From the NCBI GenBank assembly GCA_036399695.1, contig DASWMP010000294.1, forward strand, positions 10,193 to 74,192: DNA of 64,000 nt. The letters are read 5' to 3'. The translations under genes were made by a program, and so were the position numbers. Below the pieces are notes generated by a model. The model was not told the origin of the DNA. It ran no database searches and saw only the letters and a program-made list of their open reading frames with translations. This document shows positions 27,370 to 30,300 of the stretch, in pieces (position 1 is the stretch's first letter; each line of letters begins with the position of its first letter). The DNA comes from Thermoanaerobaculia bacterium. GTDB taxonomy: Bacteria; Acidobacteriota; Thermoanaerobaculia; Gp7-AA8.

Positions 27370-30300
27370 ATGCCCCTGACATCCTTTCATCCTCTCGTTC
27401 AACGGTGGTTCACCGAAACGCTGGGCCAGCCGACGCCGGCGCAGGCGCAGGGATGGGGGGCGATCCGGCGGGGCGAGCACACGCTGATCGCGGCGCCGAC
27501 GGGGTCGGGCAAGACGCTGGCGGCGTTCCTGACGGCCATCGACGAGCTGTTTCAGGAGGGGTTGCGCGGGCCGCTGCCGGATGAAGTGCGGGTCGTTTAC
27601 GTCTCGCCGCTGAAGGCGCTGAGCGCCGACATCCACAAGAACCTCGCGGAGCCGCGGCTGGCGATCCGGAAGCTGGCGGAGGAGTCGGGCGCCGAGGCGC
27701 CGCGCATCACGGCCGGGGTGCGGACCGGAGACACGACCAGCTCGGAGCGGACGGCGATGCTCAAGACGCCGCCGCACATCCTGGTGACGACGCCGGAGTC
27801 GCTCTACCTGCTGCTCACCGCCGAGAAGAGCCGCAAGATGCTGCGGACGGTGCGCACGGTCATCGTCGACGAGATCCATGCCGTCATCGGTACGCGTCGC
27901 GGCGCGCATCTCGCGCTGACGCTCGAGCGCCTGCAGAAAGTCGCCGAACGGCCGCTGCTGCGTCTCGGTCTTTCGGCGACGCAGAAGCCGATCGAGGACG
28001 TGGCGCGGTATCTCGTCGGGACGGACGGCGGCCCCTGCACGATCGTCGACGAAGGGCACAAGCGGGCCATGGATCTGACGCTCGAGACGCCGAAGTCGCA
28101 GCTCGACGCCGTCATGGCCGCCGAGGTGTGGGAAGACTATTACGACCGGCTCACGGAACTGATCGAGCAGCACAAGACGACGCTGGTGTTCGTGAACACG
28201 CGCCGCATGGCCGAGCGCGTCGCCCGCCATCTCGCCGATCGCCTCGGCGACGAGGCGGTGACGGCGCATCACGGGAGCCTCTCGAAAGACAACCGCCTCG
28301 ACGCGGAGACCCGCCTCAAGACCGGGCGCCTCAAGGCGCTGGTGGCGACGGCGTCGCTCGAGCTCGGGATCGACATCGGGCACGTGGACCTCGTCTGCCA
28401 GATCGGTTCGCCGCATCGGATCGCCACGCTGCTGCAGCGCGTCGGGCGGTCGGGGCACACGGTCTCCGGGCTGCCGAAGGGGCGGCTCTTCCCCGTTTCG
28501 CGCGACGATCTGATGGAGTGCGCGTCGCTGCTGCGGGCGGTGCGCCGCGGAGAGCTGGATCGGATCGTGGTGCACGACGCGCCGCTGGACGTGCTGGCGC
28601 AACAGCTCGTGGCCGAGGTGGCGTGCGAGGAGTATGGCGAAGAGGAGCTGTACAGTGTGGTGCGGCGCGCCTGGCCCTATCGCGAGCTGCCGCGCGACGA
28701 CTTCGGGAAGGTGCTGGCGATGGTGGCGGAAGGCTACGCCACGAAGCGCGGCCGCCGCGGTGCGCTGGTGCATCGCGATGAAGTGAACGGCCGGGTGCGC
28801 GGACGTCGCGGCTCGCGGATGCTGGCGCTGACGTCGGGCGGCGCGATCCCGGAGATCGCCGACTACCGCGTCGTCATGGAGGGGGAAGAGACGTTCATCG
28901 GCACGCTGAACGAGGACTTCGCCATCGAGAGCACCGCCGGGGACATCTTCCAGCTCGGGAACACGTCGTGGCAGATCACGCAGGTGCTGCCGGGCGAAGT
29001 GCGCGTCGCCGATGCGAAGGGGCAGCCGCCGAACATCCCTTTCTGGCTCGGCGAAGCGCCGGCGCGTAGCGACGAGCTGTCGCACGCGGTGAGCGAGCTG
29101 CGCGCCGACATCGAGCCGCTGCTCGACGATGAGGAAGAGGCGGCGGCCTGGCTCGTGGACGAGACGGGGATGCCGGCGCATGCGGCCGTCGAGGCGGTGG
29201 CGTATCTCGCCGAAGGACGCCGCGCGCTGGGCGTGCTGCCGACGCAGCAGACGCTGGTCCTGGAGCGCTTCTTCGATGAAGCGGGAGGGATGCAGCTCGT
29301 GCTGCACGCGCCGTTCGGCAGCCGGATCAACAAGGCCTGGGGGCTGGCGCTGCGCAAGCGCTTCTGCCGCCAGTTCAACTTCGAGCTGCAGGCGGCGGCG
29401 ACGGAGGACGCGCTGCTGCTGTCCCTCGGGCCGCAGCATTCGTTCCCGCTGGCGGACGTGTTCCGCTACCTCCACCCGAACACCGCCCGCGACGTGCTGG
29501 TGCAGGCGTTCCTCGATGCGCCGGTGTTCCAGACGCGCTGGCGCTGGAACACGACGATCTCGCTGGCGGTGCCACGCAACCGCAACGGGAACAAGGTGGC
29601 GCCGCAGATCCAGCGGATGATGGCCGCCGACCTGATGGCGGCCTGCTTCCCCGACGCCGCGGCCTGCTTCGAGAACATCGGCGGCGACCGGGAGATCCCG
29701 GACCATCCGCTGGTGAATCAGGTGGTGCGCGACTGCCTGCACGAGGCGATGGATTTCGACGGCCTGACGCGGGTGCTGACGAAGATTCACGCCGGAGAGC
29801 TCCAGTGCGTGGCCCGCGACACGCGCGAGCCGTCGGTGCTGTCGTACGACATCCTGAACGCGAAGCCGTACGCGTTCCTCGACGACGCGCCGCTGGAAGA
29901 GCGCCGCACGCAGGCGGTGATCACACGCCGCGTGGGGGATGTCTCGGCCGGCGATCTGGGACGGCTGGACCTGGCCGCGATCGAGCGGGTCCGCGATGAA
30001 GAGCGTCCCGATCCCCGCGACGCGGATGAATTGCACGATGCGCTGCTGACCGCCGGCTTTCTCACGGACGATGAAGCGCTGAGCATTGCCCCGGCGCTGT
30101 TCGACGCGCTGGTGGCGTCACGCAGGGCTGGGCGGGTGGGGTCTCTGTGGATTACGGCCGAAAGGTTGCCGGAGCTGTTGGCGCTCACAGAGAACGATGG
30201 GACCGATGGGACAGATGGGTCCCCGGAGCGCAGCCCCATCGGTCCTATCGGTCCCATAGGTCCCATCGGCTTCTCCGCGCCACCGTCCCGGCTGACCAGA

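Follow-up and report, generated by a model that had tools for sequence, protein, structure and literature searches.

An in-frame palindromic repeat built of tandem 9-nt units in the lhr helicase gene of a Thermoanaerobaculia bacterium

Introduction

Elements of the REP/BIME/REPIN kind are short, high-copy and hairpin-forming, and occur mostly as head-to-head inverted pairs (PMC3733652). REPs are found mainly in convergent or co-directional intergenic regions, near the upstream stop codon, and the REP unit itself is a single imperfect palindrome of 20–40 bp. Copies inside genes are occasional; intragenic REPs were described by Di Nocera et al. (2013), many of them in replication and repair genes, where they typically encode 20–30 amino acids, and whether such genes attract hairpin repeats or merely tolerate them was left open (PMC3733652).

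Rickettsia palindromic elements (RPEs), which are confined to Rickettsia, measure about 100–150 bp, and each family is conserved both in its own sequence and in the peptide that it encodes (PMC10969869). These palindromes are frequently intragenic and lie in frame within unrelated genes, which stay intact, with the added peptides thought to form surface loops (PMC10969869; PMC3733652). Bacterial MITEs, such as Coxiella QMITE1, ERIC and BOX, are small non-coding elements with inverted ends and possible translational fusions (PMC10969869; PMC5896051). The palindromic insert in this study, which lies in the lhr helicase gene of a Thermoanaerobaculia bacterium, resembles each of these in some respects and differs from each in others.

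Results

The window, that is, the whole stretch of 64,000 nt from contig DASWMP010000294.1 that was analysed, carries on its forward strand (27370..31620) an lhr gene of 1416 amino acids with a GC3 of 0.90, encoding an Lhr-Core helicase and a winged-helix C-terminal domain, as evidenced through its open reading frame and through Pfam and PDB searches. Pfam domains, all above cut-offs, are DEAD (residues 22–209), Helicase_C (258–362), WH_Lhr (389–554), DEAD_assoc (623–825), WH3_Lhr (1065–1141) and WH4_Lhr (1255–1337). The DEIH motif is present in the translation, and the PDB search matched 7LHL, the Lhr of M. smegmatis (E=8e-206), and 5V9X (E=7e-165). On sequence grounds, the predicted product is confirmed as a full-length Lhr family member, with an SF2 core, WH, DEAD_assoc and a multi-winged-helix C-terminal domain. 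The domain order is the same as in Lhr of M. smegmatis and E. coli (PDB 5V9X, 7LHL; PMC8053096), yet the structurally characterised Lhr proteins, unlike the present one, are without any such repeat insert.

Within the 73 nt of the insert itself (30196–30268), three units of 9 nt (GATGGGACN) are followed by a spacer of 12 nt and then by four units in inverted orientation (GTCCCATNG). The left arm (30196..30222, + strand) is made of the tandem units GATGGGACC, GATGGGACA and GATGGGTCC and encodes DGTDGTDGS; the spacer, or hairpin loop (30223..30234, + strand), reads CCGGAGCGCAGC and encodes PERS; and the right arm (30235..30268, + strand) reads CCCATCG followed by the inverted units GTCCTATCG, GTCCCATAG and GTCCCATCG, in the pattern CCCATCG and then 3 x GTCC[C/T]ATNG, and encodes PIGPIGPIGPIG. 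The arms, at 28 nt each, are 86% complementary. In frame, the repeat translates as NDGTDGTDGSPERSPIGPIGPIGPIG, which corresponds to residues 942–967 of Lhr. The first-pass annotation had described a palindromic repeat inside the Lhr reading frame without stop or frameshift, and the sequence at 30192–30273 agrees with that description, with all 1416 codons open. Pure 9-mer arrays are stop-free in five to six of six frames, and the lhr copy in four of six.

DNA and protein alignments delimit a somewhat longer lineage-specific segment (30187..30276, + strand; codons T940–S969), which is 90 nt long compared with 27 nt in the orthologue from relative L002, so that the net gain at the site is +63 nt, or +21 amino acids, when the DNA of the window is aligned with that of L001, the nearest relative, and of L002. 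The GC3 of the insert is 0.67, against 0.90 in the remainder of the gene. RNA folding of 30180–30285 gave −62.4 kcal/mol (z −7.05). That the lhr hairpin is still very stable, with a z of about −7, could mean that its structure is being maintained rather than drifting. Scanning of the insert for terminator and promoter consensus sequences revealed no sites and no T-run signature of a terminator. Rfam at gathering thresholds gave no match over the whole window, and two sub-regions searched at E<=1 gave only sub-threshold matches to generic long hairpins of the miRNA-precursor type (650–950 and 30100–30360).

Residues 840–1150 were modelled with AF2, and the model is closest in the PDB to 7LHL, at the C-terminal domain of Lhr. 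In the model the insert forms coil, with mean pLDDT values of 48–68 for blocks of ten residues and stretches below 50, between helices with pLDDT of about 90 and two confident winged-helix modules of the C-terminal domain. The insert peptide is thus predicted to be an unstructured loop in that domain, and the loop that had been proposed for the C-terminal extension is borne out in the model as low-confidence coil between winged-helix modules. Module order in the model would put it at the WH2/WH3 boundary. The Gly-X-Y pattern of the peptide arises from the GGG/CCC core of the units; with only 3 + 4 triplets (GTD, GPI), interrupted and in low-confidence coil, it does not amount to a collagen-like sequence.

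The same 9-nt unit, a core of ATGGGAC plus two variable bases that reads NNATGGGAC or NNATAGGAC across the family, recurs in the intergenic DNA of the window. A two-unit pattern (<=2 mismatches) gave 14 matches, compared with 0.08 expected from shuffles, and these cluster at 777–854, 30196–30267, 41055–41080 and 63574–63608, with a weaker pair at 40887–40947. The copy at 777..870, with five units, a 15-nt spacer and about four inverted units, fills the gap between convergent genes at 256..771 (+) and 866..1570 (−). A short, decayed pair (40882..40950) lies just 3' of the stop codon of a methyltransferase gene (40875), in an intergenic stretch of roughly 200 bp that is missing in L001, where the two genes overlap. 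One-armed arrays are found at 41040..41082 (three to four units of the GTCCCATNG type, adjoining the 3' end of a rhomboid gene) and, from the pattern matches, at 63566..63625 (four to five GTCCCATNG units between genes). The lhr insert therefore belongs to a dispersed palindromic repeat family, as had been claimed from the recurrence of the same 9-mer arrays between genes of the window. The first-pass annotation had listed copies at 777, 40882 and 63571; 9-mer arrays do occur at these places, but the copy at 40882 is in fact two pieces, 40882–40950 and 41040–41082, with a different small REP hairpin, GTGG-tagged, between them (41000–41021).

Spacers are unrelated between copies of the 9-mer family, and unit numbers vary from 2 to >20. 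Array loci number nine in 24 kb of L001, five in the 64 kb of the window and none in L002. Orthologous intergenic sites in the window and L001 carry different repeat families, which indicates turnover. The separate small REP of the window (GTAGGACAGACACTCTTGTCTGTCC) has six copies, five with GTAG and one with GTGG. The 9-mer (ATAGGACAG) resembles the head of this small REP (GTAGGACAGACA); direct derivation of the one from the other is unsupported, as that REP is absent from the 9-mer-rich L001.

By context, 128 elements, at loci chosen for containing an array and with crude, GC3-based gene calls, were assigned to convergent (30), tandem (51) and divergent (8) intergenic regions, to positions inside genes (11, about 11% of arrays) or left unclassified (28), compared with 63 convergent, 216 tandem and 46 divergent regions in the intergenic background. 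Measured from the stop codon upstream, the median distance of the copies is 16 nt. Most elements are inverted pairs, with 63 head-to-head and 12 tail-to-tail, and only eight of the classifiable GC-rich intergenic arrays are one-armed once decayed partners are allowed. No strand bias was found among one-armed arrays (10 vs 8, p=0.81), leaving nothing for Rho-binding rut sites or avoidance of spurious AUG starts to explain. CsrA sites (GGA motifs), MraZ sites (TGGGN repeats), DnaA boxes and 9-bp transposon footprints were also rejected as the source of the 9-mer on account of spacing, location and paired architecture.

Beyond these genomes, the 9-mer core was found in >10 phyla among the matches listed. 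Those with the ATGGGACNN array included Acidobacteriota, Planctomycetota, Verrucomicrobiota/Lentisphaerae, Chlamydiota, Hydrogenedentota, Sumerlaeota and Methylomirabilota, and also Nitrospirota, WOR-3, Armatimonadota, Myxococcota, Desulfobacterota and Gammaproteobacteria. The same 9-mer is inserted in real, Pfam-checked genes elsewhere, for an MmeI-type enzyme, HGD-D and histidine kinases, and some database matches to the unit pattern are true collagen-like coding repeats, from Paenibacillus, Ruminiclostridium and Bacillota. Full-text literature searches with the units as DNA and with the tripeptide repeats that they encode yielded no relevant paper, keyword searches brought up only general REP and MITE literature, and the 9-mer family appears to be undescribed so far.

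Among 121 Lhr orthologues (120 from databases and that of the window), the insert was found at this site only in the window and in P0001, the nearest orthologue (87% identity), where it has decayed. The linker at the site is about 9 amino acids long in P0002 (82%, BLASTP) and in all other orthologues, with a naturally variable consensus of HPxxxxI and no precursor repeat. The segment is lineage-specific, as the first-pass annotation had supposed, and no distant orthologue carries the GTDGTDG...PIGPIG sequence that would have marked it as ancestral. In an independent set of metagenomic Lhr loci the linker was short in 36 of 37, and no 9-mer arrays were seen; no relative closer than L001 turned up when metagenomes were scanned, the best match having 62% identity over the segment.

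In the three-way DNA alignment, the window and L001 agree in the right arm and at the two junctions (ACGATG... and ...GGTCCCATCGGCTT), whilst the left arm is decayed or lost in L001. Between the two, the Lhr proteins are 87% identical and four-fold sites of lhr 65% identical. The right-arm peptide PIGPIGPIG is largely kept, with five synonymous and two non-synonymous changes in 15 codons as counted on the alignment, which is about the gene-wide rate; divergence at that rate also fits weak purifying selection on the peptide. The L001 lhr copy retains units of the ATGGGAC type, whereas other copies at the L001 locus are mostly ATAGGAC (3:1 vs 12:40, Fisher p=0.054). With junctions shared by genomes whose lhr genes differ at about 35% of four-fold sites, the insertion into lhr is not recent, and the sequences suggest that it predates the split of the source genome and its nearest known relative.

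Other inserts are common in Lhr of this clade. Internal insertions of at least 12 amino acids were present in 99 of 121 clade Lhr orthologues, compared with 19 of 121 for Mfd; Lhr in Thermoanaerobaculia has about 1.7 internal insertions per orthologue, and the frequency of inserts at its linkers is roughly tenfold that at the linkers of Mfd in the same genomes. Nine of the Lhr insertions were checked at the DNA level, five of which fold far better than shuffles and a sixth more weakly, and six of the nine have copies in nearby intergenic DNA. Most of the insertions checked in this way are palindromic repeats, and several Lhr linkers in the clade contain translated palindromes of other families.

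Discussion

The insert in lhr is probably a near-neutral translated copy of a REP-like hairpin repeat, with arms of tandem 9-nt units, that is tolerated in a linker. Judging from their position, the intergenic copies may be transcribed as 3'-end hairpins that stabilise or terminate mRNA. One copy would have entered lhr in the ancestor of the source genome and its nearest known relative, perhaps as hairpin DNA mobilised in trans or through template switching at a hairpin during replication or repair, although mobilisation is a mechanism left unsupported by the failure to find a transposase or RAYT gene in the roughly 0.9 Mb searched. The arms may grow by slippage and owe their symmetry to quasi-palindrome correction. 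Two circumstances may account for the survival of the lhr copy. Since the 9-nt unit equals three codons, arrays of any unit number keep the frame, and they would encode small, flexible tripeptide repeats of Gly, Pro, Thr, Asp and Ile; the short, variable linker between winged-helix modules may likewise tolerate about 21 extra disordered residues. After insertion, the copy would have drifted like ordinary coding DNA, with a left arm that decayed in the relative and a codon usage unadjusted to lhr.

Recent MITE activity, as had been suggested for this genome, would mean that a non-autonomous transposon had only lately moved into lhr. Such an event would suit the presence of several dispersed copies whose arms are inverted, a copy number that differs greatly among relatives and the turnover of families at orthologous intergenic sites. 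The identical junctions in a relative that differs at 35% of four-fold lhr sites do not, and filled and empty sites differ without a target-site duplication. With a different spacer in every copy and varying unit numbers there is no defined element body, nor is there any conserved internal sequence or defined terminal inverted repeat beyond the tandem units, and the roughly 0.9 Mb searched held no transposase, all of which makes a recent MITE quite improbable. It is also unlikely, to a slightly lesser degree, that the insert is functional, whether as a selected, flexible Gly-X-Y-like spacer separating winged-helix modules or as a strong hairpin in mRNA or DNA that controls the expression of lhr by pausing translation, by providing an RNase site or by yielding a truncated product with the Lhr-Core only. 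The stability of the hairpin (−62.4 kcal/mol, z −7.05) speaks for such a role, as do the retention of most of PIGPIGPIG in L001, the roughly tenfold excess of inserts in Lhr over Mfd linkers, and a site beyond both the helicase core and the first winged-helix module of the C-terminal domain, where a break would separate modules. Nevertheless, the hairpin is not conserved, its left arm being lost in L001, it lacks a terminator-like T-run, and the peptide has no structure predicted by AF2 and is missing from all other orthologues, whose short linkers look functional; that Lhr linker inserts come from many unrelated repeat families argues for tolerance over specific function.

Tandem 9-nt units can grow by slippage, and some matches to the pattern are true collagen-like coding repeats (Paenibacillus, Ruminiclostridium, Bacillota), so that the insert might instead have expanded in place from a coding triplet or 9-nt repeat, its intergenic likeness being coincidental or due to outward spread from the gene. 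We consider this very improbable, given that many copies between genes, both in the window and in L001, have the same 7-nt core, 9-nt period and inverted pairs, that a palindromic arrangement is unexpected from growth of a coding repeat, that a GC3 of 0.67 is atypical of lhr, and that the orthologous HPxxxxI linker holds no precursor. In MAGs, arrays of this kind are indeed often located at the end of a contig (L009, L016, L021, L092), as would be expected if a repeat had been collapsed or chimerically joined into lhr during assembly or binning. Such an artefact is hardly conceivable here, because the identical 1416-aa gene and its flanks occur in two separately deposited assemblies (ENA ERZ27253094, JGI 3300034139) that are 100% identical to the window over 18–23 kb; in addition, L001 is an independent genome with an insert at the same site, and reading frame and flanking homology are perfect.

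If the insert is indeed a translated REP-like repeat, it shows cleanly, and in a form that can be dated, how non-coding DNA of a selfish or structural nature has turned into protein sequence in a free-living bacterium of soil or sediment, and the keeping of frame at any copy number is a simple explanation for the survival of arrays inside genes. The inserts of Lhr and Mfd provide natural material for the question left by Di Nocera et al. (2013), namely whether hairpin repeats are drawn to repair helicases or are simply tolerated there. The occurrence of the same 7-nt core across >10 phyla, among the matches listed, points to a common mechanism. A wider proposal, which we put forward only tentatively and regard as rather doubtful, is that the ATGGGACNN tandem-9-mer hairpin represents an undescribed, cross-phylum REP-like class, propagated or kept by a conserved trans-acting factor, and that together with co-resident palindrome families it may be a recurrent source of linker peptides, its three-codon period easing translation and Lhr of Thermoanaerobaculia being the extreme example. 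Genome annotation is affected too, as inserts of this type inflate the length of proteins and give rise to spurious hypothetical ones of "collagen-like" or low-complexity character.

With regard to known systems, the lhr copy has in common with RPEs that a palindrome is inserted in frame inside an intact reading frame. The resemblance to RPEs that had been noted stands to this extent, but the other properties described for RPEs (PMC10969869) are not shared, and intragenic positions, frequent for RPEs, account for only about 11% of the 9-mer arrays. Compared by description with that account, this 73-nt element from an Acidobacteriota genome is very unlikely to be a member of an RPE family. With bacterial MITEs the insert shares small size and inverted ends. 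Unlike MITEs, it is not flanked by a target-site duplication: comparison of filled (window, L001) and empty (L002) lhr sites revealed none, the flanks GAGAAC and GCTTCTC being inverted rather than direct. Nor does the 9-mer family have a defined body, a conserved length or a conserved internal sequence, and neither a related IS nor a transposase was found in the DNA searched.

The comparison with REPs goes further. The 9-mer family is high-copy, extragenic and enriched downstream of genes, as judged from array-selected loci with GC3-based calls, near the upstream stop codon and mainly in convergent or co-directional regions; it forms inverted doublets, mostly head-to-head, that fold into a larger hairpin (z −7 for the lhr copy), and has occasional intragenic copies, as do REPs, whose dimers encode 20–30 amino acids, often in replication and repair genes (PMC3733652). 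In contrast to the REP unit, the 9-nt unit is not itself palindromic; it is repeated in tandem to form each arm, and it takes two opposed arrays to make up the palindrome. The units lack a GTAG or CGTC tag, and the spacer is not conserved. No RAYT/TIRYT gene was found in the window and 114 loci, about 0.9 Mb (tblastn with five sequences from PMC3733652). Lacking a conserved core, a GTAG/CGTC tag and a target-site duplication, the family is therefore REP-like in behaviour rather than by demonstrated homology. In-frame insertion of this sort had been called uncommon outside Rickettsia, which does not hold in view of the catalogued intragenic REPs (PMC3733652) and of the insertions of at least 12 amino acids in 99 of 121 clade Lhr orthologues. 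The 9-mer repeat is accordingly a new family of a known kind, its translated palindrome representing no new kind of system, and it extends a phenomenon known mainly from the RPEs of Rickettsia and the REPs of proteobacteria and Opitutus.

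Results

The lhr gene (27370..31620, + strand), an open reading frame of 1416 codons, contains a 9-mer hairpin element on the same strand at 30196-30268, which reads GATGGGACC GATGGGACA GATGGGTCC / CCGGAGCGCAGC / CCCATCG GTCCTATCG GTCCCATAG GTCCCATCG, with three 9-nt units in direct orientation, a spacer of 12 nt and then four units in inverted orientation. Complementarity between the 28-nt arms is 86%, the RNA hairpin folds at -62.4 kcal/mol (z -7.05 against shuffles), and four of the six reading frames are open across the element, which encodes the peptide NDGTDGTDGSPERSPIGPIGPIGPIG (residues 942-967). 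The GC3 of the insert is 0.67 vs 0.90 for the remainder of lhr, as expected if the DNA was not originally coding. The first-pass annotation had described an in-frame palindromic repeat here; its description of the feature was accurate, and the kind of feature it named was the right one.

The product is a complete Lhr, with the Pfam domains DEAD, Helicase_C, WH_Lhr, DEAD_assoc, WH3_Lhr and WH4_Lhr found in the ORF and a structure match to M. smegmatis Lhr (7LHL, E=8e-206). An assembly artefact is ruled out, since two assemblies deposited separately carry the identical protein: ENA ERZ27253094 (with a MEGAHIT-style contig name) and JGI 3300034139, whose contigs share 100% identity with the window across 18-23 kb. 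Taxon names in the databases assign the organism to class Thermoanaerobaculia of the Acidobacteriota. The window's own Lhr was missing from the homologue search results (best match 87%), although an exact-sequence look-up located it on the two public contigs; the Mfd search, by contrast, gave a 100% match. Database records give no Pfam hits for this Lhr product.

The C-terminal domain of Lhr comprises winged-helix modules WH2 to WH6 and a beta-barrel (Warren et al., PMC8053096). An AlphaFold2 model of residues 840-1150, from an alignment of 20 sequences, had a mean pLDDT of 70 and the 7LHL C-terminal domain structure as its top PDB match. The insert occupies model residues 103-128, where a helix closing the first winged-helix-like module (residues 91-104, pLDDT about 92) gives way to coil (residues 105-132; 10-residue block means of 55, 48 and 68; pLDDT below 50 along 105-109 and 111-118), after which a second winged-helix-like module starts (pLDDT 87-94). 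As the insert maps to low-pLDDT coil between two modules, the model predicts a disordered linker there, in keeping with the surface placement proposed earlier. The flanking modules are provisionally named WH2 and WH3 from their order in the model.

Across an alignment of 120 Lhr orthologues (67-87% identity), extra sequence at the insert site was found in the closest orthologue, P0001 (87%), as WGHDDASNMVGRGPIGPIRPIGPIG, and a related insert in no other of the 120. In P0002 (82%) and almost every other orthologue the linker is about 9 aa long (consensus HPxxxxI); P0066 holds, at that site, an insert of 38 aa with unrelated sequence. In DNA terms, the segment measures 90 nt in the window (30187-30276) vs 27 nt in L002, a relative with an empty site, a net gain of 63 nt. 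In L001, the contig that encodes P0001, the right arm is retained (GTCCCATAG GTCCCATTC GTCCTATAG GTCCCATCG), the left arm is not recognisable any more, and both junctions are common to the window (ACGATG left, GGTCCCATCGGCTT right). Identity between the two lhr genes is 87% for the protein, 68% at third codon positions and 65% at four-fold sites. The simplest reading of this comparison is a single insertion in the common ancestor of the two lineages, followed by decay. The unit types in L001 give a weak hint of the same shared insertion, with its lhr copy being ATGGGAC-type in three of four units vs 40 ATAGGAC and 12 ATGGGAC in its other copies (Fisher p=0.054). A metagenome scan with the 311-aa segment around the insert gave 80 further Lhr loci (41-62% identity), none a closer relative than L001 and none with 9-mer arrays, and the short linker form was present in 36 of the 37 with a locatable linker. 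The segment is thus lineage-specific, in line with the first-pass annotation, being confined to the window and L001. Distant orthologues with the same peptide, the observation that annotation gave as its own refutation, do not occur among the 120 orthologues and 80 metagenomic loci. The recent activity also proposed there is contradicted by the junctions, which are shared despite 65% four-fold identity, so the insertion is not recent.

The lhr element is a member of a dispersed 9-mer family. Searching the window with a two-unit pattern (up to 2 mismatches) gave 14 matches vs 0.08 expected from dinucleotide shuffles, in clusters at 777-854, 30196-30267, 41055-41080 and 63574-63608; a decayed pair lies at 40887-40947. 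The 9-nt unit has a 7-nt core, ATGGGAC (often ATAGGAC in L001), and the spacers between arms are dissimilar in every copy compared. There are nine loci in 24 kb of L001, five in the 64 kb of the window and none in L002. An exact three-unit pattern searched against GTDB species genomes returned at least 112 stretches, and among the matches listed (L003-L114) species genomes of more than ten phyla contain the exact array GTCCCATNGGTCCCATNGGTCCCAT, usually as intergenic inverted pairs; a few listed matches are true collagen-like coding repeats, e.g. in Paenibacillus.

Among the matches listed, 63 elements are head-to-head pairs, 12 tail-to-tail pairs, 7 complex arrangements and 80 one-armed under strict detection; a decayed partner arm was found beside most of these one-armed arrays. 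For GTCCCAT on the sense strand, one-armed arrays show no bias (10 vs 8). With crude GC3-based gene calls in GC-rich loci, 30 of the elements listed lie between convergent genes (background 63 regions), 51 between co-directional genes (216) and 8 between divergent genes (46), with 11 inside genes and 28 unclassified, for which no background applies. Family members mostly lie shortly 3' of a gene, at a median of 16 nt from the upstream stop codon and about 60 nt from the downstream start.

Because 9 nt equals three codons, the frame is preserved at every unit count; pure arrays are free of stops in five to six of six frames, and the tripeptide repeats encoded (GTD, GPI, MGP, SHR, WDR) are small and flexible. 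In other phyla, Pfam-checked in-frame arrays occur in an MmeI-type restriction-modification enzyme, within its N-terminal domain (L102 4450-4527, Deltaproteobacteria MAG), in an HGD-D dehydratase subunit (L100 241-265, WOR-3), the ATPase domain of a histidine kinase (L049 7096-7129, Pseudoduganella MAG) and a further histidine kinase (L079); another lies in a 1116-aa membrane ORF without Pfam match (L029 4255-4338, Thermoanaerobaculia).

Insertions in the Lhr orthologues concentrate after query residues 217, 581-607, 905-919, 939 and 1033, with the recurring peptides CHPERSEGP...SFAVSAAQDD, VIPSEVEGSP...GDPSTSLGMT, RAEGQGPRAEG...LGPQPSALGP and RQSAVG...LPTADRRLPTAD. Nine inserts on three orthologue contigs (L115-L117) were checked at the DNA level; five are strong palindromes (z -5.9 to -11.5), a sixth is weaker (z -2.4), and for six of the nine the locus has further copies, also just downstream of lhr. 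By a uniform count, internal insertions of at least 12 aa occur in 99 of 121 Lhr orthologues (202 in all, slightly too high because one variable segment was scored as an insertion), and in 19 of 121 same-clade Mfd proteins (20 in all), most of them in a single linker and, as in Lhr, with peptides of palindrome type. The Lhr of this clade thus commonly carries in-frame palindromic repeats, which are not rare as had been claimed. Directly after the lhr stop codon lies a ~100-nt palindrome of the CTGAGGAGCGAAGCGACGAAG...CTTCGTCGCTTCGCTCCTCAG type (31630-31735), apparently the same kind of repeat that is translated as CHPERSEGP...SFAVSAAQDD in other orthologues. GGCAGTC-type heptamer arrays are translated within Lhr orthologues too (L116).

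The window also holds many intergenic hairpins with inverted tandem heptamer arrays (GGTTGTT/AACAACC, GGCAGTT/AACTGCC and CGTTGTC/GACAACG types), at 5374-5403/5653-5675, 8098-8121/8171-8200, 12241-12258/12311-12329, 19025-19048/19083-19114, 36949-36985/37063-37077 and 39642-39671/39700-39730, the last conserved at the orthologous L001 site. A classical small GTAG-tagged REP, GTAGGACAGACACTCTTGTCTGTCC, is present in six copies (21069-21090, 21147-21168, 27273-27294, 33724-33745, 33768-33789 and 41000-41021), one with GTGG in place of GTAG, and neither L001 nor L002 has it; the head of this REP (GTAGGACAGA) is similar to the 9-mer unit ATAGGACAG. Two copies form an inverted REPIN-like doublet between the OPT and DinB genes (33724-33789), and two lie in an intergenic region where a 21-nt unit, CTCGAGGGTTCCGGTCGGGCG, occurs seven times in tandem (20894-21041). 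Tandem repeats of 21 and 43 nt with the palindrome TGAGGTCCGGCGACCTCA lie ~180-300 nt upstream of the lhr start (27064-27188), where L001 has a 9-mer pair instead. Different repeat families likewise occupy the orthologous regions after lhr, OPT and CBM9/DUF5916, with a 9-mer pair in L001 vs the GTAG-REP doublet in the window after OPT, and a 9-mer arm vs a decayed 9-mer hairpin nested in heptamer arrays after CBM9. Such differences at orthologous 3' sites indicate that hairpin repeats at gene ends turn over rapidly or become stacked.

Discussion

Intergenic copies of the 9-mer family may act as RNA 3'-end hairpins, and the copy in lhr could have entered when hairpin DNA was mobilised or through template switching. 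The arms would grow via slippage, with symmetry restored by quasi-palindrome correction, a step that builds on established knowledge of template-switch mutagenesis. The insert itself is probably near-neutral for Lhr function. Its peptide or hairpin may instead have a functional role, for which the very stable RNA hairpin (-62.4 kcal/mol, z -7.05) speaks, but a specific function is disfavoured by the loss of one arm in L001 and by the range of unrelated inserts that Lhr linkers tolerate. The repeat represents a new family or variant within an already known kind of phenomenon; two leads are more intriguing, namely the 9-mer core shared across phyla and the exceptional translated-repeat load of Thermoanaerobaculia Lhr.

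Replication and repair genes are favoured by intragenic REPs in published work (PMC3733652), a repair-gene preference that the Lhr inserts echo, with Mfd as the only comparison protein. No Rfam family matched the 9-mer element, no paper containing its sequence was found, and no RAYT homologues were found in the window or the 114 loci. The MITE class assigned in the first-pass annotation does not hold, as the elements have no conserved body and a comparison of filled and empty sites gave no target-site duplication at the lhr insert. The position of the elements just after stop codons is that described for REPs relative to genes (PMC3733652), but the family has no GTAG or CGTC tag and its unit is by itself non-palindromic. 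With a REP-type position and the defining REP and MITE features missing, the 9-mer family is therefore REP-like in behaviour and stands outside the described REP families.
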